A stretch of DNA of 42,793 bases, from IMG/VR virus record IMGVR_UViG_3300005077_000629, positions 1 to 42,793 of that record. One strand, 5' to 3'. A program made the translations under genes and the position numbers. The notes beneath the pieces were generated by a model. The model made no database searches. It was not told where the DNA came from and saw only the letters and a list, made by a program, of their open reading frames with translations. Positions 16,601 through 41,620 of this stretch are shown piece after piece (the stretch's first letter is position 1; each line of letters starts with the position of its first letter). The stretch is from a virus. Taxonomy: Duplodnaviria > Caudoviricetes.

Positions 16601-19600
16601 ACCACTGATCAGTGCATACTGTTTTCCGCTTGTGTCTCTGACCTCATACATGTTCAGGTCTTTTCCATCATCCCTGGCAAGACTTGTTTCCCTGAGAACC
16701 TTTCCCTTCACGACTTTTGAATACTGCTGCTGCATCAATTCATACGCAGCGGAATCTGTCATCTGTTCCATGACTTCATCGAAGTGCTTCATCGTCTCAA
16801 CCTGGACGTGAGGAGGCATGAACATGACTTCATTGAGAACAGCACGCATATTGTTCACTTTTGAAGGAAGTTCAGCAGGAATGTCGCCGCTTGATCCAAC
16901 CCATCTTGTGTAATATGCCTTTATCTCATTCGGAAGTGTTCTCCATGTTTCCTTGAACACGTCCAGATGGAACGTTGACATCATGTCGAACGAAGCCCAT
17001 TCGTCACCAGCAGCAGTGTCGGCACCACCTCTTGACGTTGCACCAGTATCACGCAGCCTGGTTGCTGCTGTGGCCACAAACTTGTTGTCGATCGGAGAAC
17101 TTGACTTCAGCAGCGTAACAAGTGGACTGGATAACTGATCAGCACGATCAACCCGCCCAAGTCTCTGAATTACCGTTGTCGCTGTCCAGTCGTAATCGAC
17201 AAAGATAAGTTCAACAGGCCATGACTCACCATACTTGTTTCCCTTGTCATGCAGACTGATACCGGTGTCACCCTTCTTGGACAGAATTGCAACCGTGGCT
17301 TCCCCGTTCTGCCATCTTTCTATTTCACGTTGCATGTCTGCCTTAATGTTTTTCAGTTCTTTCGGAAGTCCTGAAATAATCGCTACATTCTCACGCCCAT
17401 AGTGATTTATTACCGCTTCAATATTTGAAATGACTTGATGCTCCAAAGCTGACGCACGTTCATGCAAGAGTGCACGAGCTTCAAGTGCCTCTGGCATCAT
17501 GTCACCCATGCCAATAACAGCCCCTTCTTCATCCAGGTTGCGCTCCTGTACCGGAATGGCATCAATTGCAGCACGGAGGTTGCCACCTTCTTCTGTAATT
17601 GCAGATATATATTCTACTGATAGGACAACACGCCTTCCCTCCGAAATAGACTGATCGGCTATGCGGATTGCGTCTTTCATCCTCTCTGCACCTGTTCGCT
17701 GCCTGATGTCAAATCCGAGCATAGAACGCACACCAAACGACAATCCTGGATCATTTGATTGCGCAGCGAACTCATAAAATGCAGTCTCAATATCATGATA
17801 GAGTTCTGCTATTTCATCATATTTATTGAAGAAAAACTCGTCTACTGCACTAGCCTGCTCTACCCTGTATTCAGTACCACCACGCCACAATTCACGCGTC
17901 ATGAACATTCCATTTGCTTTCAATTCACGCATGACCTGTTCAGTCATAGCAGGCGATAGTGACACACCAGTTTCTTTCCATCCCTTTATTTTCTTCTGTA
18001 GACCAGAAGCGTTCTGTTCGATTGCAAGGTCTATATCTTCCTGTGATACAGCACCGGTGCTTTTAGCTTCATCAAACCCAAGCCTATCGTATTGCGTTTG
18101 TATCTGATCACGAAGGGCATTGAAACTTATGCTTGGGTTCTCCGCTACAATCTCCCGTAATAGTCCAACCATCGCGCGCCTGTTTCTCTCGAAGAAAGCA
18201 CCACGATAGTACCCTACCACGCTTGCTTGTGGATACATGCCTACGATGTTCGTGTTCAGTTCATCTTTCTTAATTACACCTATAAAGAATTCGCCTTTCC
18301 CCATTTCTCCAAGAACAATTTTATATTTCCCTCCGAGGTCATCTCCGACAACATTCACGTTCATGGTTTGCTTTTGATATGCTGGTGTACCAGGACGCTG
18401 AATGGTTATCGGCGTTTCATCCAGCATGCCACCAAGATCAGCATATTTACTTATTGCTGCTTCACGGAATTCAGAAACTTGTTTGTTAACTTTAGCAGCA
18501 GCTTTTATTCCATCGTATTCCTCTTTCGTAATTGTCCCTGTGATCAGATCAGTGTAAAGCTGGAATGATTTATCACTAGGTCCCCAAAGACCAAGGCCAA
18601 GTAAGTAATGAAGTTCATTGATGTTTTCGGCAGGTGTTGCTGTGTAGTAAACCTGGTAGGCATCTTTTTCCATTGCTGCGTGCAGTGCTGCCCACGTCTT
18701 TCCGTAGTCAGAACCATCCAGGTTCTTACAAACATGCGCTTCATCTGCAAGCAATCCGTCTGGGCGCAGGTCATTTATTTGTGTCGCATACTTTTTCATG
18801 TCGATGTATGAACCAATATATATTGTTGGTTCATCGAATACAGGAAGTGGATCAAGAGGACGGTCGTGGATCATAACTATCCTATACGGGAATTCCCCGT
18901 CAATGACAGTTCTTCCTGCTTCATCGTATTTTCCTCCACCGACAACATGGAAATATTCTATTTGAGCTGCGACTGTCGCATCATTCTTTGACAGGACCAG
19001 TATTCTTTTCTTCCCTGCACTTTCGATCATATCCCAGGCCGTATATGCCATCATGCGGCCTTTTCCTGTGCCTGTACCGTCTGCTGCCACAAACGCATGT
19101 CCTTCAGCATTTGCTTGCAGTGCATACGCTGCACCAACATGCTGATCGTCCGATATCATTCCACGCTGTCTCGCTGCCTGGACTATATCAGACACATTGT
19201 ATGTCAGTTCTGGAACACGTACTCCGGCAAGTGCTTTGCCTTCAACGTAAGGGCGGGGGTGTCTAGAGATTGATTCTCGTGGAGTGTATGTAGAGAAAGT
19301 ATAGCTGCCTGAATCTTCAATGGCGTCTGATTGGCTATCCCAGTAATCCCGAACAAGCTCATTGTTTCGGACGACAATAGCATCTGGAACCAGGCGATCC
19401 GAAGGCGGGGGGTCAGTTCTTTTTCTTCTAGGCTTTCGGGAAACCACGTTGGAATCAGGTATGGTTTCCCGTCTACTTGTACTTCCTCCATCGCCAGGGC
19501 TTCCTCCGGCTGCGCTAGTTCCTGATACAGCATAGGGTTCTCGTCTTTCAGTAGACGGTACAAATCGTTCCACCGCTGACGCTTCTCGTTCGATTTCAGT

Positions 19601-22600
19601 ATTTCCAGTGGGTAATGCTGCAGCTTCCACTGTTTCAACGCCTTCATTTCTTCTTTCACGGACATCTTTCACCTCCGAATATCGTGCGTGTGAACCGTCC
19701 TCAGACAAGCTCTTGACCAGGCTTATGTACTCAGCCCAGTCTTTTGGAGCATTGTCTCCCCAGGCTTCAATAGCGGGTAAAGCATCATCGGGTGCCTTTG
19801 TCTTATCGACAACCAGAAGGATTGACCCGACAGTTGTTCCTCGTGCATCGTATGCACCTTCAGGACTTTCGATAATTGCACGTACATGGAAGTTGTCATT
19901 TAGCCACGTCCTGAAACTTGAACCTGCCGGGCTTATCTCTCCTGTGCTCCTGTTTCTAGTGTATACAAGGTTTGTTGGAAATACGCTAACAACACGACCG
20001 CCATCCACAACCCTGTGGTTTGTAAGATAGTAAAACCGCTGTGACCAGTCATTCGGCTTCAGTGTTTTTTGAATACCGTCCGCATCACGGTAGGTTATAT
20101 TGACAGGATCACCGTACTTCCCTGACTTATAAGAACCCCACGGAGGATTGTGAACGATAACGGTTGCTTCAGCGGGAATTATTTTCCCATCCTCAGTGAA
20201 GTTGAACTCAGCCTTCAGGACATCGTACTTTGTTGGCTGATATCCCATTGACTCTAGTACAGCACGCCTTCCCTCGTCCAGTTCATTTACCTTTATTACA
20301 ACGTTCTCTGTGCCGTACAGTGGATCGACAAGGTTTGCCGTGCCAGCTTCCGGCTCCATGATCACATCACCGGGACGAACGTCTGCAGCATAGGCTGATG
20401 CCAGGCTGATCGGGAACGGTGTAGAGAACTGCTGCAGTGATGTCTTTTGAAGTGTTCGCCTGGCCGTAATCAGGCTGTCCTCATATCGCTGCGCAACTGC
20501 CATTCTTTCTTCAAACGTGGCCGATGGATTGTTCTCTCTCCACTTCCTGTATGCCATCGACACGCCACCTTCAAGCGCATCATACATGCGGCTTACATCG
20601 GTGTCGTTTTCCATGTCGAACCCGAGTGATGTTGCAAGCGTTTCAAACTCTGTACGATCAAGAGATTCTTGCGCTTCCCACTTGGCTGCAATACGTTTTG
20701 TAAGAACACGGATTTTCGCTGCTTCTCTGTCTGGAAAGTCGCCAAGGTCCGGTGGGCGTTCAACCGGTGCTTCCTTCCTGGCGTCAGGCATGATGGGGGC
20801 TGACCCCATTTCCATGGTTACGTTATTCGCACGCAAACCATTATCGAACACCAGCCTTACATCTACCGGAATATCTCCATAGATATTCTGGAAGGCGAGC
20901 ATCCTGTTTCTACCTTCATGCTGTGTATTATTCCAGACCTTGTTCTTACCATCCCAGGCAACGAATAAGACAGGATTGGCAAATACCTTTCCTTCTCTCA
21001 TTGCACTTTCAATACCCTCGCTTGTGCTATGAGAAACTTCAGGAACATAGGACAGATATTCGGACGGCTTCATCTTCCTATTCATGCCGTAAGCATTGCC
21101 TATCTGAAGTGGAATAGACCCGATGCCATCAGGAGAGAATATACCCTCCGGTCCTATGGCTTCCCCTCCAGGTGTATCTGTCTCTATCGGAGGAACCGCA
21201 AGCAATTCGCCTTCATAACCACGTTCACGCATGAGTTCCTGGAACGTATCGTATACCAGATCAGATACACTTTCTTTTCCGATCATGTCATACAATTGAG
21301 CATCGTTGTATCCACCGCCAAACGCATCTGAGTATTCTTCCCACCGGGTAATAGCTTCTATTATGCCGACGATGTTCCTCACGCCTTCCTGGTCAACCAG
21401 GTGCGCTATCTGTGATTTCAGAATTCGTTTAGCGTTATTTGCTGCATCATCTGCTGCAGCAGCAATCGGATCGTCTGCTGCTTTTCTTTCAGCAATCTTT
21501 CTTTCTATTCTTCCAAGCATCTCAGCATGAAGTCTATTAGACTCATCTGTTCCACGTGGTGCCCCATCATATAACCAATATAGTTCTGCATCTGGAATAT
21601 GGGACAGGCTGCCTTTCTTTTGAGCCTGTGATTCTGCTTCAGATGTCCAATAGAAAGGCTTCCTGGTTAGGTCCAGGTTATTGTCCATTGCTTGCTGTAC
21701 GTTGTAACGCTGCGGTTCGAGCCATCCCTTCCCTTCGTTGTCGCGGAACACGGCATTAATTGCGTCAAATAGGTAGTAAACCTTCTGTACTCTTGGATCG
21801 TCCTCTTTTATCGGTCCAAGCTGACCAAGATCATCAAATCCTTCCTCCATCAGCCTGTACAAATCACGGTACAACTCTTTCTTTGCGCCGTCTACATTGA
21901 CAAGATCATGCACATATCTGTATGCCCACTGTGAGGTAAGGAACGGATATTCCATCATGACTTCAAATGGAACCTCTTTATCAGCAAAGACTGCTTTCCG
22001 AACCTCCATGTAATGTTTTGTCTCTGCATCACGAACGTCACGCCCGGTAAGCAGTTCTCTATCAACGTATTCTTTCCTGGTCATTCGCCAGGTCTCACGT
22101 GTGTCAGGTTCCTGCGTCCTGGTAGGGACAGTTGTGCTTTCAACAGGGGTTGCTTCTGTTTCATTCACAAGCTCAGCATCATAACCTGCTGCTTCCCGTA
22201 AACTTGCCATCAAGTCCTGGGGTGTACTATCTTCCACTGGTGCAGGGCGCAATACTTCTTGGAGAACGGTCATTTTTGTCCCGTTATCAAGAGCAATTGT
22301 GTAGAACCTGGAAGGGTTCATTCTTCCACCCGTGTGTGTATCTTCAATTACACCGACATAGGTTTCCCCCATATATCGGAACGATACTCTCTTTCCACGC
22401 CACTCATGCTTCCAAGATTCTAACCATCCATTCCAACTTTGAAACTCTGCAGTTGTGATCGGTTCTCCAACCGAAACGGTGTTTTCTATGACTCCGATGT
22501 CTGAACCATTCAGCACAACATTCTTGTCTTTTATTATCGCCTTATACTTGTTGTCAGGAAGCACCTCTGTTATTACTGCCGTGCCAGTACCGGCATATTG

Positions 22601-25600
22601 TCCTTTGCGTATACTCACAACAGTTGGTGGTGATATTCTGGATGCAAGGATGTTTGAAGGAATGGTAATGTCATAACTTACGCCTGCTTCAGGTGCCCTT
22701 CCCATGATCATTGCAACACGCTGCGTTCCAACATAGAAGTTCAGCATGGTCCTGGTTGACTTTGTGTCTGAACTTATATATGTAGATATTACCGGGACAG
22801 CCTCCGGGAAAAGATGCCTGACCAAGTTGTAATAATTCCTATCAAGTAAAACTTTTCTACCGGTTCCAGACACGCTTAGTTCTACGGCTATGTTGTCCTG
22901 TGAACTTATCTTTATGGTGTCCGCAAGTTCCAGGTCATGATGATAAACACTGTCGTAGGCGTCCAGACTCATCTTTACCCGGGGCGAATTGTCAACCTCC
23001 CTTTTCAGTCTATTGAGTGCAGCTACCTTGAACATCTTTTTATCAAGATTATCTATCATATATGTGCGGTCTACACCGCCGCCGATAACCATTCTTCCGG
23101 TTACAAACAGCCTCTCGCCGCCTGACGTTACCTCTCCAAACGATTGTCCCCATATATCTTTGCCTGGATATGAAGTTGATGGGATAACGGGTAATGCGGA
23201 CGTTACCCCTCCAAGTCCTTTAAGATCACGCTTGTGATAATCCTGGTAGTGCATTAAGAAACGCATGACATCATCATACATAGCCTTGTCGTCAGGATTT
23301 ATTCCAGCGACATCAGCGTATGTCTTTAGCTTATTCATCGCTTCCAATACGGTATTCTGATCGGTACCATCAAAGTAGTCAGACGATCCAAGTTTTGTTC
23401 TACGATCCAGGTCACCTATGTATCTGTAGAATTCCTTTTGCTTCTGCTTTGCAGCATCTTTTGCAGGGTCAATAGAGTAAGTTGGTGTTTGCTGAAGGTT
23501 CCTAACTGCATCATCATAGACATACTCATATATCTTCCCGTTTGTCGTTGTTTTCATGTCAGGGGAATTTGCTGTGATCAGCCACATTGTATTGAATACG
23601 TCTTTGATATCTGCATCAGCAACAAGTTCAGTGAACGAACTGATGCCCTTTTGTGCAGCCCTGGACATGAATTCACGGAACGCATTTTCAGCGTGGCCGC
23701 CCTCCCCGGTATAATACGGTAATGACCGGAATATTTCATCCGCTTTCTCAACCGTGAAATCACTAGGTGTTTTTAGTACCATGTCTTTGTGAAGATCAGC
23801 CATATAAGTAATACGTGCATCCCTGTCTGTCTGCACAATTCCAAGTCCCTGGCCTGACCTTGTACGTATATCAATGATCAGCCGTATCTTTTCGGCAATA
23901 ACCTGAGCCTCGCCAAGGGTCATTTCCGGGTGGGTTCTGTGAATTGTTCGTGCCATGTCAGAGTCAGGAGGTGACGTTATGGTTGCCGCCAATACCTGAT
24001 GAACTGTATTGTACGGGTTGGCCAGGGAAACGCCATCAACCATTGTTATTTCCATGACCTGTTTCGTAAGATCGAAATACATTTGCAGTCGTGCGTTTTG
24101 TTTTCGATATGACATTCTCAATGCTTCGTATGCTGATTGCACATCTTTCGGCAATGCAGGATAGAAGTTGTCATACGAACCACCCGGATTACTCCGTATA
24201 ATTTTCCTGATTGTTTCCACAACATTTACTGTTGGATCAAGATGGTATGGAAGATAACTATGATACACAGTAGCAACGTCTGCTGCTATGTCCCCAGTTC
24301 CTTTGAAGTTCAGGTCTATCAAAGTATCGCCAGTGGCAAACTTCTGTGTTTGTCTTATTGAATTGCCCTTCTGGATGTTGTCCCAAACATTCTGTATAAG
24401 ACCATTCGGCGGCGTCTTATCACCGTAGAAAAGACTGATGATCCTGGAAACATCGTTAAGAGTAAGCCCCTCTTTGAAATGTGCGAACCTGGAATTCAGA
24501 TCACCCTCGAAAAGATCGTCCGTAATAGGACGCAGACCGAGCTTATCAACTAATTCTTGAACACCCGTTTCGGGCATCTCTGATGCAAGTTTATTCTCAA
24601 CAGGAACATACGGTTCTTCTTCAGCAGCTTTCATAGCTGCCTTTGCCGCTGCCTCACGAATATCGTCAATTGTCGGTACTGCAGCCGTATCTGCTGCAGG
24701 TTTTTTATCTGCAGGCTTTTTACTTTCCACCCTCTCATTAAATAACTGTCCCGCTTCTGCCGCTGAAATCAACCCCTCTTTGATTGCATTGGCTACGGAT
24801 AACTTCTCCCAGTTCCCATCCGGGTAGTTCAAAACGATATCTTCTTTGAGAAAAGTTCTGTAATCTGCAGTTACATTTTTTACTTTTACGTTGTCTGGCA
24901 AAACCTTTTCTACTGCCAGCCTGGTAATCTCACCTATATTCTCTGGCCTGGAAGCAACGACGTCTGTTCTTTCCTGTGCACGCTGCCGGATCACATCATT
25001 AAGTACAACTATCTGTTCTGGTGTAGCCTTGCTGTAATCAACAGATAGTTGACGGATCATGCCAATCTTGCCATTAAATTCTTTCGGCTCTTGATCAATT
25101 CCAGCCTTGTATCTTGCGGCACGATCAAATTCCTGCCGACTTTTATAACGAGCCTGCTTCAATGCTTCCCTATCAAGTCCAGGAATAGTATCTACCCATT
25201 CATCGCCAGTAAAATACTCTCCACTTTCTTTAAGTTCATTGTCATGCTTGTCGATTGCTTGTTCAATAGCTTCTCGTTCTGGACCCGGATTGTTCCGTGA
25301 TTCACGATATGCTTCTATGTCAAGTTTTTCAGCATCTATGGCTGCCTTCCTCGCCTGTTCTGCTGCAGCCAATTCTGCAGCCCTGGCTTCAATTGCCGCA
25401 GCCTTTGACGTTTCTTTATCAACAATACGCAGATCAAGTCGTCTTACGGCATCCGCTATCTGCTCAGCAGACAGATTGTTGATGTCCTTTGTGTTGAATT
25501 CCTTTTGAAGCCAATTTAATACATGCGCAAAGTGATTGAATTCGGCACGTTCTGCACGGTTCCAGAATTCAGCGAACCGCTCATCGAACAACAGTTTTTG

Positions 25601-28600
25601 TGGAACACCTGCTATCGTTGTTCTGTCTGCAAGTTCTTTCGCTATTCGTTCCTGGACTTCATTCTCATGTACCGCTGCATCCCTGGCTTTCTTGCCATCG
25701 CTATCAACCCGGGAAGCATAGGCTTCACGCTCAGCAACGGACTGCTTGTATGCTTCCAGGTAGGGACGCATTTCATTCAGCCGATCCATTGTCGGATAAT
25801 TGAAGTCGTCTACTGTAAGAGGTTTTCCTTCGCCAGCTTCAATGAACTTGTTTATTTCCCCCATTTTTCCAAGGAAACCTGACAGCTTATCCATTCCATA
25901 CTGCTTCAGCAATGTATCCCGCAGTTTCACAAGCTCTGGTGGAGGCGGCACCTTCCGTACTTCAGGTGCACCAGCCTGCCGTGCTTCACTTGTCGCCTGG
26001 CGTTGCGCATCCTTCAGGCTCATTCCACTATCCACAAGTTCCTGGACCCTGGACTTTGACACTTCTACTTCTGCTGTCTCTATCGGTACGCTTGCACCCT
26101 TGTCTGATGGTCCTTCCTGGGGACCAGTTGGTTCTTCTGGTACAGGAGCAGCACCTTCTGCAGGAGGTTCTTCTCCACCTGGTTTTCCCTCGATGTTCTG
26201 CCGTACTTCAGGGACAACCTGCCGCACGGCTTCCATGTTCATGTGCTCGAATTCAGCAATCATCGGAAGATATTCATTATTGATGAATTCGTACCAGGCT
26301 TTGCGCCTTTCCGATCCAGGCTTACCAACAAGTGACGACCTGAATGAAACCATGCGGTTACGCATATCACGCCTGAACTGCATGATGTTCTCACGGTGCA
26401 TCATAAGATTATCTGCTGCCGCTTTACCACCCTGTTTCTTTACCCAGGACACAGCAGCCTTATCAACTGCTTCCTGCAACTTGAAAGCACTTTCCGAGTA
26501 GTCACGATACATGTCATTGAGTGTTGCTTCCAGGCTTGTCCAGGCTGCCAGTCCTTCTTCATGTGTCTCATACTCAGTATTGAAATGCTCTCTCTTTGCA
26601 GCATCAGACTTTTTGAAGAATGTGTCCCACTCTCTGTGCATCTTCTCTATGTTAGAGATGAATGATGCAGGCGGTTCAAGTCCACCTTCACGCAGCCCTG
26701 TGAGTATTCCTTCATACGTGGCCAGTTGATAGGCACGCAATCGCTGTGCATCCCTGTTCGCATTGGCTGACCTTGCAGCAAAGATGGCATTACGTGCACC
26801 TTTTGAACTGGCACGGTCTCCCATCTCATACGTCTCAGCCCATTTGATAAAGTGATCATTCCACCAAACAAGCTCACGCATAGATACTTCATCGAACAGG
26901 CCGACTATCTGATCAAGTGCATCACCCATCCGTGGAGAATCTGTATCCCCTGGAATAACTGACGCTACTCGTTGCGCTGCTTCCGCAGCCCGTGCCTTCG
27001 CTTCCGTTGCAGCAAGTTCGTCCAGGTGATCCTGGACCCTGGCTTCAAGCTCGTCGAATACACGTATCTTTTCATCAGGTGTAAGGTCGTCATTCCACCG
27101 TTCTGAAAGAAAGTCCATTACACCAGCAGTCCCGAGCAAATCACCAAGACGATCAGCCGGAATACCTACCTCTTGTGCAACCTCTGGAAGGAATGAATCA
27201 ACGTTCCTGGATAACGTACCGAACAGCCGTGCTTCCATGTCACGCTGGTTCATGCCCCCCTCAATGATGCCATACACCATACCAGGAAGGTCCGGGTCAA
27301 TATTCCGCAGCGTGTTTTCCAGGTGAGGCGGCATTGCATCAAACCCTACACCACGCCTCCATAGCTGCCGCCACATTCGCTGTGTTGACGTTGTGAACGC
27401 CCGGCGTGATTGCCATTTCTCAACTTCCCTCGAAAACTTCATGAATACGCCAACCTTGTCATTCGTTTGGCGTATCTTTCTTCCAATTTCACCGAGTGCA
27501 CCAGCATCTTCCTGCTGCGCTGCTCGTATCTTCATTTCAGCAGCGGTGCCAAGGTCGGAACCAATGTCTGCAGCACCAAGCCCTGCTTCATATCTGTACG
27601 GCTGAATACCGAACTTATCCCAAAAGCCCTGCAGTCGTTCCGGTGACCACATGCCCCAGGTCCCGGCCAATGCCATGGTTACTTCACCATTGATAAAGTT
27701 ATTGACAAAGTATGTAGGGTTCATGCCAAGCAGCACAAGAGATTGTGCAGCTTTGATTGTGTTCGCAAGCCTGTAGATGCCTGGCTCTTTCTTTATACCG
27801 AACTCTTTTATTCCCCACTCCGCAGTATGATCAAGCAATGATGCCATAAGCTGAGCAGCAAACTCATGCGGATGATAAGGCGCACCAGTCTCAGTGAATA
27901 CCTTGTGCATGTCTGCAAGTGCCTGTGGGGTAAACTCTCCACGGCTTGCGGCTGCTATTATATCTTCAGCGTGTGCGTGCCCGGACTGCTGAACCCGATC
28001 CATGAAACGATTAAAGATTGCATCGGTATCGTCTATTCCGCTGCTTATCGCAGCGAGAATTTCATCAGGCGTATCACCGAGAACTTCAGCAAGCGTCATG
28101 AGTATGCGCCTGTTTGTCTCAGTCATGTGCCATATATCCAGGTGTTCATCAGCAACACGACTTACAAAGTCACGTATAGCACTGGATGCCAGGTATCCTT
28201 CCGGGGAACCAAGGCTTGCCTGGGAATACTCCGCAGCAGCTTCAAGTGGAGTATTACCCCAGGTCTTTAGTCGCTGCACCATTGCTTCAGGGTTATCACG
28301 ATCCGTATACAAAAGAACCTGTGCATTGTCAGACACTATTCCAAGTATCGTTTTCAACCTGGATGCAGGTGTCATTTCAAACATCAGGTTTATCCAGTCG
28401 CCAACGAACGGGATAGTGCCTATGAACTTTCTTCCAAGTTCTCCGAGCACAGGACCACCGCTTCTTACCTGGCCATCCTTTGTCACACCTGCCATGAACC
28501 TGGTGAACGCCCCGGCATGACTTAGGTCTGCAACGGTAAGGCCTGTCTGTCCTGTGCGCAGCATGACTTTGTACAGTTCAAGCCCTTGTGCAAGGCCATG

Positions 28601-30073
28601 CGTTTCACGCATAGCACGACCAAGAGCAGGGTTACCAAGAGCATCAGCAAGCGGCCCCCACAATATCTTCCCGCCGTAAGGTTCTATAACATTCAAAGGA
28701 TCAGCCGCAGACCTGGCAAACAATTCAGCCATCTGCCCGGTGAAGCCATACCGGAGGTTTACTTCTTCCTGGATGTCATTAAATGAACGTCCATCTACAA
28801 GGTCACGGCGTGCCTGGACGATTGCTGCAAGACCAAGCTGCTGATCATCAAACACGCTGGAAATATCGACAGGCTCAGGTAATCCTATGTGCCATGCTTC
28901 ACCAGGTCCAGCAAGGTCCTGTCGAATAAGCCGTTCACCAAACGCTTCACGCATACCAAGATCGTATAAGGCGTTCTCAATACCCTGGAATATGTTCGAT
29001 GAAGTCCTTGTGATTGCGCCCTCAGTCGATACAGTTTCGTATGCTGTCTGTCCAGCCTTGTATGCCTGGACAACATTCTTGTTGAATTCCTCAACTGTGC
29101 CGTATGCTTCCGGGTCCATCACTGCACCAAGATACTGAGCAACAGCACCAACACCGCCTTCAAGTATTCCTGCAGGAATGTCCATCACATTGAGAAGTTC
29201 TGCAATCGTTTCACTATGCTGTGCAGCTACGCCAAGAGCAGCACCGCCAGCAAGCGTTCCAAGGCCGCTTACCGGACCACCAGATAGCGTTGCCAGAATA
29301 GCCCACGGCACTGCTGTAAACGCACCGTGTGCCGCCGGAGATTGTAAGATTGGAGCAATGAGCTTCTGCCATGCGGGAAGGTTTTCATACTGGACTTCCT
29401 GGCCACCACCCTGGCGCATTGCTTCCTGGTACAGCGGGTCCTGCTCCATCATGTACTGACCGTACTGTTCCTGGAACGCTTCAAACGGAAACATTATCTC
29501 TGCTGGAGGTGTTCCCACTTGCTGCAACCAACTGCGTGCAGGATCGTCAGGGCTGAGATATTTCCATTCCTGCCATGGTGCGTTATTGTTCGCCTGCTGG
29601 AAATACTTGTAAGCAGCAGACACGCCTTCTGCATCTATCCAGTTAAATATCGGATCGTCAGGTGCAGCAGATTGCAATAGATGATAGTACCTGGCAACCC
29701 GCCGCGGATCCTCCCAGTAGGTTGGCGCATAATCAGGCACGAACCCAGGCGTAAGGTCATACGCACCGTACCGCATGAATGAACGAACGATATCATCACG
29801 CTGCTGGTTCGGCATCTGAGACAGACCTGGCATCCAACGATAAGACTGTACCTGGCCATTTCCCACATTCCTGGCGTTCACAGTGTTCATCGGCTGTGTC
29901 TGGTATCCAGGATAATTCGTTGTGTCCAGTCCTGGCGCAGATATATATGCACCAGCTTCAGGTCTGAACTGGTATTGTGGGTTGCGCTGCTGCATTTCAC
30001 GAACAGCTTGCGGCTGTCTCAGGTATTGATCACGGCGTTTTATCGCTGCCTGAAGTTCTGCGTCTGTCGGCAT
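13673..30073 (-). CDS. Giant (5466 aa) polyvalent virion/ejection protein with ParB-like, adenine methyltransferase and strawberry-notch SF2 helicase domains
   Basis: Single ORF with AAGGAG RBS. HEGRNR (~aa 3052); QQFSTP, EPEAGTA and NPPW (~aa 3210-3312); ADGTGTGKGR (~3664); DEAH (~3777); TGISLH and QRLGRVDRADQ (~4303). Helical N- and C-terminal regions and a hydrophobic Gly/Ala segment near aa 240-290. Confidence 0.85.
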   Translation of the reverse strand: MPTDAELQAAIKRRDQYLRQPQAVREMQQRNPQYQFRPEAGAYISAPGLDTTNYPGYQTQPMNTVNARNVGNGQVQSYRWMPGLSQMPNQQRDDIVRSFMRYGAYDLTPGFVPDYAPTYWEDPRRVARYYHLLQSAAPDDPIFNWIDAEGVSAAYKYFQQANNNAPWQEWKYLSPDDPARSWLQQVGTPPAEIMFPFEAFQEQYGQYMMEQDPLYQEAMRQGGGQEVQYENLPAWQKLIAPILQSPAAHGAFTAVPWAILATLSGGPVSGLGTLAGGAALGVAAQHSETIAELLNVMDIPAGILEGGVGAVAQYLGAVMDPEAYGTVEEFNKNVVQAYKAGQTAYETVSTEGAITRTSSNIFQGIENALYDLGMREAFGERLIRQDLAGPGEAWHIGLPEPVDISSVFDDQQLGLAAIVQARRDLVDGRSFNDIQEEVNLRYGFTGQMAELFARSAADPLNVIEPYGGKILWGPLADALGNPALGRAMRETHGLAQGLELYKVMLRTGQTGLTVADLSHAGAFTRFMAGVTKDGQVRSGGPVLGELGRKFIGTIPFVGDWINLMFEMTPASRLKTILGIVSDNAQVLLYTDRDNPEAMVQRLKTWGNTPLEAAAEYSQASLGSPEGYLASSAIRDFVSRVADEHLDIWHMTETNRRILMTLAEVLGDTPDEILAAISSGIDDTDAIFNRFMDRVQQSGHAHAEDIIAAASRGEFTPQALADMHKVFTETGAPYHPHEFAAQLMASLLDHTAEWGIKEFGIKKEPGIYRLANTIKAAQSLVLLGMNPTYFVNNFINGEVTMALAGTWGMWSPERLQGFWDKFGIQPYRYEAGLGAADIGSDLGTAAEMKIRAAQQEDAGALGEIGRKIRQTNDKVGVFMKFSREVEKWQSRRAFTTSTQRMWRQLWRRGVGFDAMPPHLENTLRNIDPDLPGMVYGIIEGGMNQRDMEARLFGTLSRNVDSFLPEVAQEVGIPADRLGDLLGTAGVMDFLSERWNDDLTPDEKIRVFDELEARVQDHLDELAATEAKARAAEAAQRVASVIPGDTDSPRMGDALDQIVGLFDEVSMRELVWWNDHFIKWAETYEMGDRASSKGARNAIFAARSANANRDAQRLRAYQLATYEGILTGLREGGLEPPASFISNIEKMHREWDTFFKKSDAAKREHFNTEYETHEEGLAAWTSLEATLNDMYRDYSESAFKLQEAVDKAAVSWVKKQGGKAAADNLMMHRENIMQFRRDMRNRMVSFRSSLVGKPGSERRKAWYEFINNEYLPMIAEFEHMNMEAVRQVVPEVRQNIEGKPGGEEPPAEGAAPVPEEPTGPQEGPSDKGASVPIETAEVEVSKSRVQELVDSGMSLKDAQRQATSEARQAGAPEVRKVPPPPELVKLRDTLLKQYGMDKLSGFLGKMGEINKFIEAGEGKPLTVDDFNYPTMDRLNEMRPYLEAYKQSVAEREAYASRVDSDGKKARDAAVHENEVQERIAKELADRTTIAGVPQKLLFDERFAEFWNRAERAEFNHFAHVLNWLQKEFNTKDINNLSAEQIADAVRRLDLRIVDKETSKAAAIEARAAELAAAEQARKAAIDAEKLDIEAYRESRNNPGPEREAIEQAIDKHDNELKESGEYFTGDEWVDTIPGLDREALKQARYKSRQEFDRAARYKAGIDQEPKEFNGKIGMIRQLSVDYSKATPEQIVVLNDVIRQRAQERTDVVASRPENIGEITRLAVEKVLPDNVKVKNVTADYRTFLKEDIVLNYPDGNWEKLSVANAIKEGLISAAEAGQLFNERVESKKPADKKPAADTAAVPTIDDIREAAAKAAMKAAEEEPYVPVENKLASEMPETGVQELVDKLGLRPITDDLFEGDLNSRFAHFKEGLTLNDVSRIISLFYGDKTPPNGLIQNVWDNIQKGNSIRQTQKFATGDTLIDLNFKGTGDIAADVATVYHSYLPYHLDPTVNVVETIRKIIRSNPGGSYDNFYPALPKDVQSAYEALRMSYRKQNARLQMYFDLTKQVMEITMVDGVSLANPYNTVHQVLAATITSPPDSDMARTIHRTHPEMTLGEAQVIAEKIRLIIDIRTRSGQGLGIVQTDRDARITYMADLHKDMVLKTPSDFTVEKADEIFRSLPYYTGEGGHAENAFREFMSRAAQKGISSFTELVADADIKDVFNTMWLITANSPDMKTTTNGKIYEYVYDDAVRNLQQTPTYSIDPAKDAAKQKQKEFYRYIGDLDRRTKLGSSDYFDGTDQNTVLEAMNKLKTYADVAGINPDDKAMYDDVMRFLMHYQDYHKRDLKGLGGVTSALPVIPSTSYPGKDIWGQSFGEVTSGGERLFVTGRMVIGGGVDRTYMIDNLDKKMFKVAALNRLKREVDNSPRVKMSLDAYDSVYHHDLELADTIKISSQDNIAVELSVSGTGRKVLLDRNYYNLVRHLFPEAVPVISTYISSDTKSTRTMLNFYVGTQRVAMIMGRAPEAGVSYDITIPSNILASRISPPTVVSIRKGQYAGTGTAVITEVLPDNKYKAIIKDKNVVLNGSDIGVIENTVSVGEPITTAEFQSWNGWLESWKHEWRGKRVSFRYMGETYVGVIEDTHTGGRMNPSRFYTIALDNGTKMTVLQEVLRPAPVEDSTPQDLMASLREAAGYDAELVNETEATPVESTTVPTRTQEPDTRETWRMTRKEYVDRELLTGRDVRDAETKHYMEVRKAVFADKEVPFEVMMEYPFLTSQWAYRYVHDLVNVDGAKKELYRDLYRLMEEGFDDLGQLGPIKEDDPRVQKVYYLFDAINAVFRDNEGKGWLEPQRYNVQQAMDNNLDLTRKPFYWTSEAESQAQKKGSLSHIPDAELYWLYDGAPRGTDESNRLHAEMLGRIERKIAERKAADDPIAAAADDAANNAKRILKSQIAHLVDQEGVRNIVGIIEAITRWEEYSDAFGGGYNDAQLYDMIGKESVSDLVYDTFQELMRERGYEGELLAVPPIETDTPGGEAIGPEGIFSPDGIGSIPLQIGNAYGMNRKMKPSEYLSYVPEVSHSTSEGIESAMREGKVFANPVLFVAWDGKNKVWNNTQHEGRNRMLAFQNIYGDIPVDVRLVFDNGLRANNVTMEMGSAPIMPDARKEAPVERPPDLGDFPDREAAKIRVLTKRIAAKWEAQESLDRTEFETLATSLGFDMENDTDVSRMYDALEGGVSMAYRKWRENNPSATFEERMAVAQRYEDSLITARRTLQKTSLQQFSTPFPISLASAYAADVRPGDVIMEPEAGTANLVDPLYGTENVVIKVNELDEGRRAVLESMGYQPTKYDVLKAEFNFTEDGKIIPAEATVIVHNPPWGSYKSGKYGDPVNITYRDADGIQKTLKPNDWSQRFYYLTNHRVVDGGRVVSVFPTNLVYTRNRSTGEISPAGSSFRTWLNDNFHVRAIIESPEGAYDARGTTVGSILLVVDKTKAPDDALPAIEAWGDNAPKDWAEYISLVKSLSEDGSHARYSEVKDVRERRNEGVETVEAAALPTGNTEIEREASAVERFVPSTERREPYAVSGTSAAGGSPGDGGSTSRRETIPDSNVVSRKPRRKRTDPPPSDRLVPDAIVVRNNELVRDYWDSQSDAIEDSGSYTFSTYTPRESISRHPRPYVEGKALAGVRVPELTYNVSDIVQAARQRGMISDDQHVGAAYALQANAEGHAFVAADGTGTGKGRMMAYTAWDMIESAGKKRILVLSKNDATVAAQIEYFHVVGGGKYDEAGRTVIDGEFPYRIVMIHDRPLDPLPVFDEPTIYIGSYIDMKKYATQINDLRPDGLLADEAHVCKNLDGSDYGKTWAALHAAMEKDAYQVYYTATPAENINELHYLLGLGLWGPSDKSFQLYTDLITGTITKEEYDGIKAAAKVNKQVSEFREAAISKYADLGGMLDETPITIQRPGTPAYQKQTMNVNVVGDDLGGKYKIVLGEMGKGEFFIGVIKKDELNTNIVGMYPQASVVGYYRGAFFERNRRAMVGLLREIVAENPSISFNALRDQIQTQYDRLGFDEAKSTGAVSQEDIDLAIEQNASGLQKKIKGWKETGVSLSPAMTEQVMRELKANGMFMTRELWRGGTEYRVEQASAVDEFFFNKYDEIAELYHDIETAFYEFAAQSNDPGLSFGVRSMLGFDIRQRTGAERMKDAIRIADQSISEGRRVVLSVEYISAITEEGGNLRAAIDAIPVQERNLDEEGAVIGMGDMMPEALEARALLHERASALEHQVISNIEAVINHYGRENVAIISGLPKELKNIKADMQREIERWQNGEATVAILSKKGDTGISLHDKGNKYGESWPVELIFVDYDWTATTVIQRLGRVDRADQLSSPLVTLLKSSSPIDNKFVATAATRLRDTGATSRGGADTAAGDEWASFDMMSTFHLDVFKETWRTLPNEIKAYYTRWVGSSGDIPAELPSKVNNMRAVLNEVMFMPPHVQVETMKHFDEVMEQMTDSAAYELMQQQYSKVVKGKVLRETSLARDDGKDLNMYEVRDTSGKQYALISGIFLDDLRNIRNMLSENTKDLQSVSFVSFQDQDVGDTISGIQIPSGKISRIAKFFFVDMKANITRDTALAAIHAGDSIPVNGPGNRVYKLRMRNDGKIAIDRALMSDKNSLLGAGAKYIPKGNLWFIPEESLQRFFDSYPLLKSIAATMATGETPTDGIGNTSPGEEDNAEGYSTEMRSPDNYLRIDPGKADTYFTREDGYSREDGIVPMDPFVHGGENGMTVSAAVYKDGILTAYIPAGEKYEWFDTATGPVRVLGLDVHNSRMWVLERGDGTTFTRPVIQGGSEAAEVPPPAASMNDAVPYEYRGQDEEEAWSAHIMPALASLREKMTRTDPPKKFNLGETDPDTTRQLQDYMRRSVYGRMSDNKLAAIRWGQNRRDAALLNYTKRYNIDSLANIIYPYEFFYTRSFLRHLSRIFDKPGYYAFYARLRNMQRNTLYSPGFPTRLRDKVKIPMPFLPDWAGGGLWVDPFRQLFPFEQLATPLETMARENSMVDQRTATILQSWLQEGKYSDAEIRDAINSRSGHVWEQAKTMAEQNVDRETSNPFDFMNLIVSPSLPINILYNVLKGTPNEINNLPPTRAIQAITSLAGWASGNPTAGVNVEAPIRRALGMDEFPRWHQYRIERQLANMAVEGYDTNEVQRAMIEQAGPLYEEAKRRAGLEAATGTATSWAGMTSNMYGEGEEQFRGMQQQLNAAFQWANETGDRSRVNEFFDEHPEYESRLALFDEPEERLRGYMVDLVWDTYNGFDRAQKAQIREGLGDIFQMTFLDKETRSYDAVDIATMAMWVRFMRQAEQVPNVPEAQQAPSEMVQMMTPAAMQGGIDYLDPGIAAGVTDYRDTKDALFPHWYALLDRYYSTEPSQRDAFKNAWPELEAMWAWENDFLRNRPDLIPYVKPEGWEPKDYPVSAEARNYLRYQEFRSYLDAPLAGQLTRYYYADYQLGEGAIKDLRRIYDQMGITDMSFGAFMNTIVSGAMK

Positions 30074-35666: not shown

Positions 35667-35697
35667 CAAACAAAAGGCCGGGCAATGTGCCCGGCCT
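35667..35697 (-). terminator. Intrinsic terminator of the recombination operon
   Basis: GGCCGGGCA-CAT-TGCCCGGCC followed by TTTTGTTTG on the minus strand. Confidence 0.85.
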
Positions 35698-37093: not shown

Positions 37094-37479
37094 CTTTGAT
37101 ACACCTCCCTTTCAGTATTCCTTATCTTCATGTCGAACAGCGGCGGCTTGTCTACGTCTGAAGGCCTCAGGATCAGCAGCACCATTCCAACTTCAGCAGC
37201 AATTGCTATCTTACGGTCCATGCTTTCCGCAGACCAGCTTCCTGGGTTCTTCTGAAAGTCAATAAGGTACGGTTCTCCAAACGGCGGCTGAACATACATG
37301 TCAAAGAACAGCAGCCCCTCGTCATCTGGCAATTCATACTCAAGCCCGACTTCCCTATACGGTTCCAGCCGTGCTTTCGCAATTGCTACCTCCAGGGAAG
37401 GATAGTCCCGGCGTTCCTGTGCAAGCTGCCGGGCACGTGCTCTACCCCCCCGCTGTTGCGCCGTCATCTGCTCCGTCAT
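37069..37479 (-). CDS. DUF559-like restriction-endonuclease-fold protein
   Basis: PSLE...EYEL...FFDMY...YLIDFQ...DRK...GMVLLIL pattern; GGAG RBS; directly after the annealase. Confidence 0.5.
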   Translation of the reverse strand: MTEQMTAQQRGGRARARQLAQERRDYPSLEVAIAKARLEPYREVGLEYELPDDEGLLFFDMYVQPPFGEPYLIDFQKNPGSWSAESMDRKIAIAAEVGMVLLILRPSDVDKPPLFDMKIRNTEREVYQRWINTTTG

Positions 37480-38692
37480 CGCTCCACTCCCCTTCCATTA
37501 TGGTCTGCTGCAGCGGTTCGCTGCGCAATCTCTGAACCTCAACAATCTTTCGCAGTTCTGTCGCACTGTCCTTGTTTATCACGTATGCACCGCCGCTGTC
37601 CTGGGTCATGTTCAGGTACCTTGTAAGCGCAAGCACCTGGGGAACATCCAGGTTAGAACGCTTCGTTGTGCCGAACAGATAATCCAGCAGAAGGTTTACG
37701 TTATCCTCCACCAGTTCTGATCCTGGCCACAGCTCTTTGATTGCTCCGATACCAGCATCCAATGCCACTTCATAATCACCAACGGCGACCGTGACGGTAC
37801 CGTTATCCACCTTTTCCTGGTACTCTTTGCGGATTTTTTCGATGCCTTCCTTCACCTGTTCAGGCTGGTATGGCCGGACCTTGTTCGGTGCGCTGCTCTT
37901 GCCTGCATTTGTATCACTCCCATACAATGCGTTTACACCAGCCTGGAACCTGCTTTCCACTTCCTCAGCCGAAACGTTTACGACATCCAATTCATCCCAT
38001 TCCCCGGCAATAATGTAGTCATCGGTAACAGCCGATGCTTCTCGCACCGGTGTTTCAGGATGGTATCGCTTGCGAATTGCCTGGATCAGGGCACGCTTCT
38101 CTGCAGCTTCCTTCATGTTCCACTTGGCCTTACCGGTGAACTTCCACTGTTCACCTTTGCGGATTATGCCGACCCCAGTTACTACCGGCATGCTGCCGAT
38201 GGTTTCGACAATCGCATCATGATCAAGTCCAAGCTCTTTCATGTCCCGGTAATCACGCTTCCAATTCTCAATGTCCTGCTGATCCCGGACCGTGGCCAGA
38301 ACAGTGTAATCACCTGTGTCTGCTCCATACCTGGCGGCTTCGGTCGGGTCCGTAACGATCCTGCTTTCCCATCGAAATGCAGAACCAATGCTCCGGGCGT
38401 GTTCTTCTGCCTTCCTCAGTTCTCCATCCCGCCCCTTGTGCAGGCTCAGCGTCCGCTTTCCTTCTCGATCAACATTCACCCAGGCGTGCAGTTCCCCCAT
38501 GAATGGATCAAGATCGTAGGCTACGGCTACCTGGGCAAACAGCAGAAGTTCCTGCATGTTCATGCGGGTATCACCTCTGTCTGTTGCCTGCAGCCGTTCT
38601 GCCAGGGCACGCACAGTTTTAGCGTCCTGGTATCTCGCCAAACTGTGCCCGGAAGTCGTGTGCTCCCGGTACTTCACCAATTCATTGCTCAT
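37442..38692 (-). CDS. RecT/Bet-like single-strand annealing protein
   Basis: ELLLFAQVAVAYDLDPFMGELHAW, KGRDG and AEKRALIQAIRKRY match the Bet/RecT core. Start reassigned to MSNELV at 38692 behind GGAGGA. Confidence 0.75.
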   Translation of the reverse strand: MSNELVKYREHTTSGHSLARYQDAKTVRALAERLQATDRGDTRMNMQELLLFAQVAVAYDLDPFMGELHAWVNVDREGKRTLSLHKGRDGELRKAEEHARSIGSAFRWESRIVTDPTEAARYGADTGDYTVLATVRDQQDIENWKRDYRDMKELGLDHDAIVETIGSMPVVTGVGIIRKGEQWKFTGKAKWNMKEAAEKRALIQAIRKRYHPETPVREASAVTDDYIIAGEWDELDVVNVSAEEVESRFQAGVNALYGSDTNAGKSSAPNKVRPYQPEQVKEGIEKIRKEYQEKVDNGTVTVAVGDYEVALDAGIGAIKELWPGSELVEDNVNLLLDYLFGTTKRSNLDVPQVLALTRYLNMTQDSGGAYVINKDSATELRKIVEVQRLRSEPLQQTIMEGEWSDDGADDGATAGG

Positions 38693-38706
38693 GGTTTCCT
38701 CCATTG

Positions 38707-38771
38707 CGACCTGCTTCATCAGCGGGCAGGCGGTCAGTCCTGCCCGTACCGGGAGCAATCCCGGTTTCAGC
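38707..38771 (-). ncRNA. Type II hammerhead ribozyme with loop I pseudoknot
   Basis: Minus strand GCU-GAA-ACCGGGA(UUGC)UCCCGGU-A^-CGGGCAGG(ACUGACCG)CCUGCCCG-CUGAUGA-AGC-A-GGUCG. It has the full core (CUGAUGA, GAAA, GUA), a 7-bp stem III, 8-bp stem I, 3-bp stem II and UGACC/GGUCG pairing. Confidence 0.92.
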
Positions 38772-38774
38772 TAC

Positions 38775-39011
38775 CTACATGACCTGTTCGCCCCAGTCGT
38801 ATACGGCGACAATCTGATTATCATCAATCATATTGAAGTCCAGGTCCTCAGAAGTACCTTCGTTGTACAGGTACTCCGTTTTCCCGGCCTCTGCATCGTA
38901 CTCCGTCAACCGGTACACATAGGCGAAATCCCTGAGCTTCTCGCTGCGCCGCTGCGCCGCTGCTGCAGCATCCTTCAGATTGTAATAGTCACCTTCAGCA
39001 CTTTTTTTCAC
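38775..39011 (-). CDS. Small acidic hypothetical protein, first gene of the leftward early operon
   Basis: Start reassigned to GTG 39011 behind GAGGAGG; 78 aa (MKKSAEGDYYN...WGEQVM). Confidence 0.7.
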   Translation of the reverse strand: MKKSAEGDYYNLKDAAAAAQRRSEKLRDFAYVYRLTEYDAEAGKTEYLYNEGTSEDLDFNMIDDNQIVAVYDWGEQVM

Positions 39012-39044: not shown

Positions 39045-39073
39045 ATTATATATCGGTCTACTTGCGTAGTCAA
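39045..39073 (-). promoter_or_regulatory. Strong sigma70 leftward early promoter
   Basis: Minus strand TTGACT-N17-TATAAT. Confidence 0.85.
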
Positions 39074-39162: not shown

Positions 39163-39366
39163 ATGAATAAGGTATCCATCGTATTGGAAGAACACCTGAA
39201 AGCCAGGGGCATGAGCATACTGCAGCTTGCTGAAGATACCGGGCGCACCTACGGGTCAGTTCACAGCATCGTTCGCAACCGTGTATCAAGGCTGGACCTT
39301 GATGTCCTGGCAGACATCTGTGTTGCGCTCGGGCTGCAGCCTGGTGATGTGCTGCACCTCAATTAG
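39163..39366 (+). CDS. Cro/C1-type (XRE, HTH_26-like) regulator
   Basis: LKARGMSILQLAEDTG...LDVLADICVALGLQPGDVL pattern; divergent from the early leftward promoter. Confidence 0.88.
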   Translation: MNKVSIVLEEHLKARGMSILQLAEDTGRTYGSVHSIVRNRVSRLDLDVLADICVALGLQPGDVLHLN

Positions 39367-40819: not shown

Positions 40820-41112
40820 TCCTGGAAGAACAAATCATCATTGCTGCTGCATGGAAGTCTATCCTGCAGGCAGAGCAGCGCATCATGGAGGCTGAACATG
40901 AGTACAGAAAAGAACTCGTTGCAATCTACCGGGACGAAATCAGAACCGGTATCGAACAGAGAGAGGAAGTTTTCCCGGGAACAGGCAATCCCGATAGTGA
41001 ATTGTATGATAGATTGGCTGTCCTCTTGCACAGTAGCAGCGGCTCCGGCTGGCGCAATGCGGAGGTTCGGGGATTGGATTACATCCGTAGACATTGTTAC
41101 AGTACCGAATGA
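40714..41112 (+). CDS. Hypothetical protein
   Basis: AGGAAGGA RBS before ATG 40714; helical composition. Confidence 0.6.
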   Translation: MRTNRTAGNKDHRPEEKKHTTSKDHEAVLDKYQAVILEEQIIIAAAWKSILQAEQRIMEAEHEYRKELVAIYRDEIRTGIEQREEVFPGTGNPDSELYDRLAVLLHSSSGSGWRNAEVRGLDYIRRHCYSTE

Positions 41113-41620
41113 TTATCACGTCAGGGAAATCAGGAACCTGTTCAAAGAAGTCACACAAAGCATGCCGACATCAACCCTGATGGATCGTGCCCGTGATGCT
41201 TACTTCGGCAGGGATAACACCTGGGCTGCCCCGGACGACAAGTCTGACAGAACCCTTACCGCTAAGACGATTGTATTGAGGCATAGAAATACTGGCCTCT
41301 TGTTTGACATTCACCTGGCAGACAAAAGAACATTTGCCTATTGGATGCTGGTATGGACAGGACCAGCAGAGTTCAATAAGGCAATCATGACATTAGCACT
41401 TGAACGGGGGTACTTTTTCCAGGATGGATTGCTGCACGGGCACCCACGCCCAATAACATACGTATGCCAGGACCGTGAAGAATGTCCCTACATCCTGGAT
41501 TGTTACGATGATAATGATATTTTCAAGCACCTTGACTATCCATACCAACTGCCGTCAAAGAGAGACGGCGATAAGGCATGGCAATTTATACGTGCCGTAA
41601 GAGAAGGGCTCGATGGATAG
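41006..41620 (+). CDS. Hypothetical protein (start uncertain: 41006, 41057 or 41162)
   Basis: Open frame to TAG 41620 overlapping the next gene; the track's 40841 start overlaps the previous gene too much. Confidence 0.55.
   Translation: MIDWLSSCTVAAAPAGAMRRFGDWITSVDIVTVPNDYHVREIRNLFKEVTQSMPTSTLMDRARDAYFGRDNTWAAPDDKSDRTLTAKTIVLRHRNTGLLFDIHLADKRTFAYWMLVWTGPAEFNKAIMTLALERGYFFQDGLLHGHPRPITYVCQDREECPYILDCYDDNDIFKHLDYPYQLPSKRDGDKAWQFIRAVREGLDG

Follow-up and report, generated by a model that had tools for sequence, protein, structure and literature searches.

The gap between the first two cistrons of a leftward operon in the phage genome IMGVR_UViG_3300005077_000629 is filled by a type II hammerhead ribozyme (38707..38771, minus strand) in which the core, the three stems and the pseudoknot are all intact. 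This ribozyme probably cleaves itself between 38747 and 38746, the cut site predicted from its sequence, and would thereby split the early transcript without the help of proteins, behaving as a portable module placed between genes rather than as a device for the specific control of the recT-like gene that follows. The window, by which we mean the whole stretch of DNA analysed here, is the entire contig of 42,793 nt; it is likely to be a complete phage genome, since it has a terminal repeat of 99 nt, a gene for the large subunit of terminase and another for a protein of 5466 aa. The locus offers a compact test case: a lone ribozyme follows the opening gene of what is predicted to be a strong early operon, and the genome is taken to be complete. 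As an instance it adds little in itself, because hundreds of similar hammerheads exist.

Anatomy of the ribozyme and its statistical support

The gap spans 82 nt of the minus strand, from the TAG of the first cistron (38777-38775) to the ATG of the recT-like gene (38692). The core comprises GAAA (38768-38765), CUGAUGA (38722-38716) and the triplet GUA (38749-38747), in agreement with the CUGANGA, GAAA and NUH elements of hammerheads. Seven base pairs make up stem III (38765-38759 with 38748-38754), A15.1-U16.1 among them, with a loop of 4 nt; stem I consists of 8 bp (38746-38739 with 38723-38730), with a loop of 8 nt; stem II, the open stem, comprises 3 bp (38771-38769 with 38713-38715), its closing pair being A10.1-U11.1 in place of the usual G-C. 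The three stems are without mismatch and loops close stems I and III, which is the topology of type II, while UGACC in loop I (38736-38732) pairs with GGUCG in the 3' tail (38711-38707) through four Watson-Crick pairs and one U-G pair, counting as a pseudoknot at the threshold of at least 4 bp. Stem II begins 3 nt after the stop codon and the tail ends 4 nt before GGAGGA, the Shine-Dalgarno (SD) sequence of recT (38697..38702, minus strand). In the terms of the survey of relatives reported below, these distances correspond to 6 nt from stop to GAAA and to an SD-led start at 23 nt, as in an inter-cistronic module. The preliminary description had claimed a complete type II hammerhead in the stop-to-RBS gap, with this pseudoknot and these two distances to the TAG and the SD, and every one of its coordinates holds.

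A descriptor covering hammerheads of types I, II and III has a single match in the whole window, of type II at 38768/38747/38722. Among 4116 dinucleotide shuffles, any loose match was counted in 103, a medium match in 2 and one with at least 17 stem pairs in 1. Weaker patterns were discarded as evidence: a loose version of the motif gave 9 matches in the window versus 6.6 expected, which is uninformative, and a pattern restricted to the core retrieved 118 loci from IMG/VR (85 distinct matches), yet the stems were present in a single contig among them, so that the core words alone are attributable to chance. The folding z-score of the whole gap is only -1.3.

Nothing reached the gathering level when the whole window was scanned with Rfam, and nothing was retrieved at E<=10 from a query of 1 kb; with 101 nt as query the best family was RF02276, aligned over the full model at 21.1 bits (E 0.016), short of the cut-off of 37. 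Such a score lowers the standing of the element as an Rfam member by score, not its identity as a type II hammerhead. A custom covariance model was then built from 16 copies neighbouring pattern hits in other contigs, the window sequence being excluded; it assigned to the window hammerhead 55.4 bits (E 1.2e-10, on a rough calibration; next-best match 8.6 bits), and it leans to the subfamily of the window ribozyme because its source contigs were found with a pattern derived from that ribozyme. Hence the earlier expectation of a significant covariance-model hit fails at the Rfam cut-off and is borne out by the model built from relatives. Run over the full window, the same model detected no second copy in this genome. 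The cut-off of RF02276 is passed by 17 copies in six of the related loci, which ties the subfamily to that family. In 45 aligned hits of the model (including the window hammerhead, one contig twice and paralogues), double-sided changes occur at 15 of 15 nested pairs and, in an alignment fitted to the nested stems with the pseudoknot outside the model, also at 5 of 5 pseudoknot pairs; none of 500 shuffles reached as high. The A-U closure of stem II is present in 2 of these 45 copies, one being the window hammerhead itself.

Type II hammerheads of phages and bacteria, as well as their placement between genes, were described by Perreault 2011 (PMC3088659). In that article 14 of 18 consensus examples are active, tandem phage hammerheads cleave in vitro, and cleavage in vivo is reported in E. 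coli; a halovirus hammerhead lies 13 nt before a start codon, with its cut site coinciding with the mapped 5' end of the mRNA, and phage hammerheads are proposed to process long transcripts into mRNAs of gene or operon length (PMC3088659). Another source presents the purpose of phage hammerheads lying between genes as unresolved (PMC6765202). The window ribozyme resembles the RF02276 hammerheads of Perreault in topology and core, in its short stem II and its pseudoknot, and in lying between phage genes, but differs from them in being a single copy instead of part of a cluster, in its A10.1-U11.1 closure and sub-threshold score, in adjoining a recT-like gene (the word RecT is absent from the main text of PMC3088659) and in having a 12-nt complement downstream. 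The HHphage of the archaeal haloviruses HF1 and HF2 has a variant core (PMC3088659), whereas that of the window element is canonical and the element comes after a first cistron that is translated.

The leftward operon and its recT-like gene

Seven SD-led ORFs follow one another in the leftward direction (39011-35718), and the hammerhead lies among them. The operon is predicted to start at a promoter-like site of sigma70/sigmaA type, TTGACT-17-TATAAT (39045..39073, minus strand), which is a consensus match of 11/12 only, one of two at this level among 13 sites found where 8.9 are expected by chance. It is predicted to end at a terminator-like hairpin with a T run (35675..35697, minus strand), equally a consensus match, 3' of the last of the five ORFs that follow the recT-like gene (37479-35718, minus strand). 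The first cistron (38775..39011, minus strand) is an acidic ORF with a GTG start and the SD sequence GAGGAGG, for which searches returned no family and no relatives outside its own contig. It most likely encodes 78 aa from GTG 39011; an alternative reading of 101 aa was rejected since the promoter-like site would sit inside the longer ORF, the SD of GTG 39011 is strong, and the protein collection has an entry of 78 aa. Divergent from the promoter-like site is a gene of Cro/C1 HTH type (39163-39366, plus strand), and the region that they form is likely to be a control switch.

Other features of the genome deserve mention. The ORF of 5466 aa (13673-30073, minus strand) occupies 38% of the genome and shows, by eye, motifs of methyltransferase and helicase type; it presumably resembles the large anti-restriction or injected polyproteins of phages. 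A 259-aa ORF (40841-41620, plus strand) has a thumb domain of DNA polymerase beta above the Pfam cut-off (E 1e-8), which is unusual for the replication region of a small phage. Two weak hints on the host point to Dehalococcoidia: one homologue of the RecT-like protein is annotated from such a genome bin, and one hammerhead array is located in a bin of the same kind.

The gene downstream of the ribozyme (37442..38692, minus strand) codes for a protein of 416 aa with the Redbeta/RecT fold of single-strand annealing proteins in its N-terminal ~215 residues. Its match to Pfam RecT (PF03837) stays below threshold (19.4 bits against a gathering value of 24, E 8e-4), and a sequence search of the PDB returned no useful match. 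At E<=0.001 the protein has 265 relatives, of which the closest are ~30-38% identical; 10 of 41 aligned homologues match Pfam RecT at E<=0.01 (best 7e-7). The AlphaFold model has a pLDDT of 85, and its top VIA matches are lambda Redbeta (7ujl; Z 9.1, rmsd 3.9, 137 aligned) and A118 RecT (7ub2; Z 7.5, rmsd 6.4, 163 aligned), which places it within the annealing-domain fold of Redbeta, RecT and Rad52. Foldseek gave no match at E<=0.001 with this model, its best rows being RAD52, and an atlas search with the protein led to RecT-bearing viral clusters at 0.94. The label RecT-like is justified, and the protein would be expected to anneal single-stranded DNA.

We fetched 13 loci with homologues of recT, of which L350 was omitted as a duplicate of L345; in the remaining 12, which comprise several near-duplicates and two loci (L352 and L355) with little or no upstream sequence, no hammerhead was found. 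Conservation upstream of recT in related phages, suggested earlier as a check, turned out negative in these 12 loci, and a conservation of the hammerhead specific to recT was rejected. A profile of the recT subfamily matches all 13 of the fetched loci and none of 224 other loci, the latter including chance pattern matches devoid of ribozyme. The pairing of hammerhead and recT is hence specific to a lineage, given its absence on both sides of the comparison. Pfam RecT was also absent at E<=1e-4 among 70 of 92 predicted ORFs downstream of hammerheads, a threshold that the window protein itself would miss. We found no close relatives of the window locus that could show conservation.

Other structures occupy the position of the ribozyme upstream of some recT homologues. 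By eye, there is a long imperfect hairpin in L353 and L354 and a short GC hairpin in L345, L347 and L349; these might fill the role of the ribozyme, as structures of RNase III type or as stabilisers. In L343 and L344 (~2850-2940), three short palindromic repeats lie right before the SD sequence. We take these repeats to recall degenerate CRISPR repeats of type I-E, and they may possibly constitute an operator or a solitary-repeat RNA.

Predicted products of cleavage and a complement in recT

Transcription from the promoter-like site, followed by cleavage at useful rates, would convert the leftward early transcript into a message of ~290 nt for the first gene and one of ~3 kb beginning with recT. 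Type II topology leaves one hairpin on each of the two products. From this anatomy and the established chemistry of hammerheads we infer that the upstream product would terminate in the hairpin of stem III with a 2',3'-cyclic phosphate, and that the downstream one would start, 54 nt before the recT start codon, with a 5'-OH fully paired in the hairpin of stem I. RNA ends of this kind, 5'-OH and paired, resist the decay that depends on the 5' end, to an extent that varies with the host. In the early transcript of T7, polycistronic phage RNA is split between cistrons by RNase III. That system needs a host protein and produces 5'-phosphate ends, whereas the window hammerhead is predicted to rely on RNA chemistry alone. 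By comparison with an RNase III site and with RiboJ, the hairpin ends would likely set stability and translation of the two messages independently, and by analogy with RiboJ the downstream message is likely to be both stabilised and standardised. RiboJ likewise generates by self-cleavage a defined 5' end starting with a hairpin just before the RBS, and raises protein 2-10 fold and transcript ~2 fold; it was engineered from the ribozyme of a plant satellite RNA and is placed after a promoter, and so is neither a member nor a relative of the present family (PMC6206723). The effect of such ends depends on the host, as glmS illustrates, whose cleavage product with a 5'-OH undergoes degradation (PMC6765202). 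We also considered that the ribozyme might mask the SD sequence, but the predicted accessibility of the SD is equal before and after cleavage; masking was rejected on this prediction, which leaves an unmasking of the RBS unsupported.

The first codons of recT complicate the prediction of cleavage. Codons 7-11 (38661..38672, minus strand) are a perfect 12-nt complement of ribozyme positions 38757-38746, a segment that takes in loop III, stem III on its 3' strand and the cleavage site; they may alternatively form a local hairpin with ~38655-38647. According to ViennaRNA, the probability of stem III drops from 1.0 to 0.0 when codons 7-11 are added to the naked RNA, and the resulting fold lies 9.6 kcal/mol below the best fold compatible with the hammerhead, with the pseudoknot uncounted. 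Cleavage could therefore be partial or slow. One explanation for this arrangement is that cleavage is gated by translation: with codons 7-11 paired over the cut site and stem III, the ribozyme would be off unless ribosomes translate recT. The operon would then be split only during such translation, or in the window of ~46 nt before codons 7-11 are transcribed, with the competing local hairpin setting the balance and the switch being written in the coding sequence that it controls.

We regard this explanation as unlikely, even if the complement is uncommon by several measures. None of 848 tiles of 100 nt from the genome reaches 12 nt, none of the 109 relatives surveyed below attains 10 nt downstream, and among 1000 mismatched pairs a single one has as many as 12 nt; nevertheless, the complement was found post hoc and, given the protein sequence, it arises in 282 of 20000 random synonymous recodings (1.4%), so that the probability of its occurring by chance is about 0.1-1.4%. 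The residues of codons 7-11 belong, moreover, to a semi-conserved stretch of the protein family. The duplex formed by these codons (-24.3 kcal/mol) is stronger than in all 109 relatives (best -20.9), but the local hairpin of the codons cuts the advantage to the above value of 9.6 kcal/mol, in a model that has no pseudoknot or tertiary contacts. Masking recT from -12 to +35 brings stem III back to a probability of 1.0, with a predicted refolding barrier of 2.5 kcal/mol; on the other side, the complement is absent from the hammerhead family and no homologous locus was found for covariation.

Inhibitory pairings of flanking strands are proven for the HDV ribozyme, in which Alt1 / P(-1) shows that a ribozyme can be silenced by a flanking strand of ~10 bp, and that this strand can in turn be tied up in a local hairpin (PMC4615214), as codons 7-11 might be. 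HDV is, however, a different ribozyme, with an upstream non-coding strand and experimental proof (PMC4615214), whereas in the window the strand is downstream, coding and predicted only. For phages, none of the papers listed by our searches of the open-access literature describes an anti-hammerhead located in a coding sequence. If true, the gating by recT would be a natural case of a hammerhead under the control of translation, and would offer a principle for designing ribozyme insulators. Even if the complement is accidental, an assay of the ribozyme alone could overstate, judging from the predicted folds, cleavage in context.

Layout among viral relatives

In order to place the window ribozyme among its relatives, a narrow hammerhead pattern in which the stop codon was left unspecified was applied to 15 of the 64 parts of IMG/VR. 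It returned 125 loci, corresponding to an estimated ~510 stretches in all. Copies with verified stems were present in 116 loci; the 124 distinct ones were reduced to 112 after removal of near-duplicates and to 109 with enough flank. The stop codon of an ORF of at least 45 codons ends 2-7 nt before GAAA in 81/109 copies, as against 2-9/109 at five shifted positions. An SD-led start follows within 45 nt in 74/109, stop and start are both present in 58/109, and the pseudoknot reaches 4 bp or more in 97/109. The genes downstream are diverse and unrelated, mostly small and of no known function. The wedge of stop codon, ribozyme and SD is thus the norm of the family and no feature of recT. Any special link between hammerhead and recombination is left unsupported, because the layout is common to the family, the downstream genes are unrelated and the 12 loci of recT homologues have no hammerhead. 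The module would rather have been picked up in this phage lineage.

The tightness of the upstream spacing could have another meaning. Ribosomes ending the upstream gene might unwind stem II and GAAA, or shield the ribozyme from upstream mispairing, so that throughout the family cleavage would depend on whether the first cistron is being translated; the argument makes use of the size of the ribosome footprint. From the stop codon to the 5' edge of stem II the distance is -1 to +4 nt in 81/109 copies, versus 1 of 32 terminator-like hairpins at the same loci, and the spacing on the 3' side, to the SD, varies much more widely than that on the 5' side, to the stop. The terminator baseline is nonetheless small, unvalidated and possibly itself selected for distance, and genome compaction could likewise bring a module to abut a stop codon; tight stop spacing is compatible with both ribosome coupling and compaction. 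In the window, the last codons of the first cistron contain GGUCA (38780..38784, minus strand), complementary to loop I and conceivably a decoy for the pseudoknot, but a comparable match exists in only 5/101 relatives and may be due to chance. Stems I and III also stay intact in folding when 50-100 nt of upstream sequence are added. We judge a termination coupling of this kind to be rather unlikely, and favour the plain splitting of the transcript by a portable ribozyme.

Another origin for the layout would be that the module of stop, ribozyme and SD is a neutral or decayed passenger, left by the shuffling of genes, cutting weakly or not at all and having no role in fitness. The hammerhead has no second copy in this genome, taken to be complete, and is missing before homologous recT genes; it combines the A-U closure of stem II with an Rfam score under threshold, and its predicted fold in context is inactive. 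Against these points, the hammerhead keeps 18/18 stem pairs, its entire core and its pseudoknot, while close relatives of the flanking proteins are lacking, a combination which argues for ongoing selection or recent arrival. We hold a passenger to be very improbable.

Arrays of type II hammerheads were frequent among the loci retrieved first, at a density of up to 9 copies in 5 kb. They comprise 4-9 hammerheads each, lying between small genes (L133 in its entirety, with 9 copies, L127 with 6, and L123, L120, L282-L285 and L193). Within one genome, as in L133, the SD leaders are near-identical, as if the whole module of stop, ribozyme and SD had been duplicated, and it is possible that such modules serve as recombination points for gene shuffling. 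In L001, positions 430-2600 contain a 276-aa ORF and small genes flanked by three hammerheads in tandem. Loop I of the first is identical to that of the window ribozyme and its tail is nearly so, and the third has the A-U closure of stem II in common with the window ribozyme.
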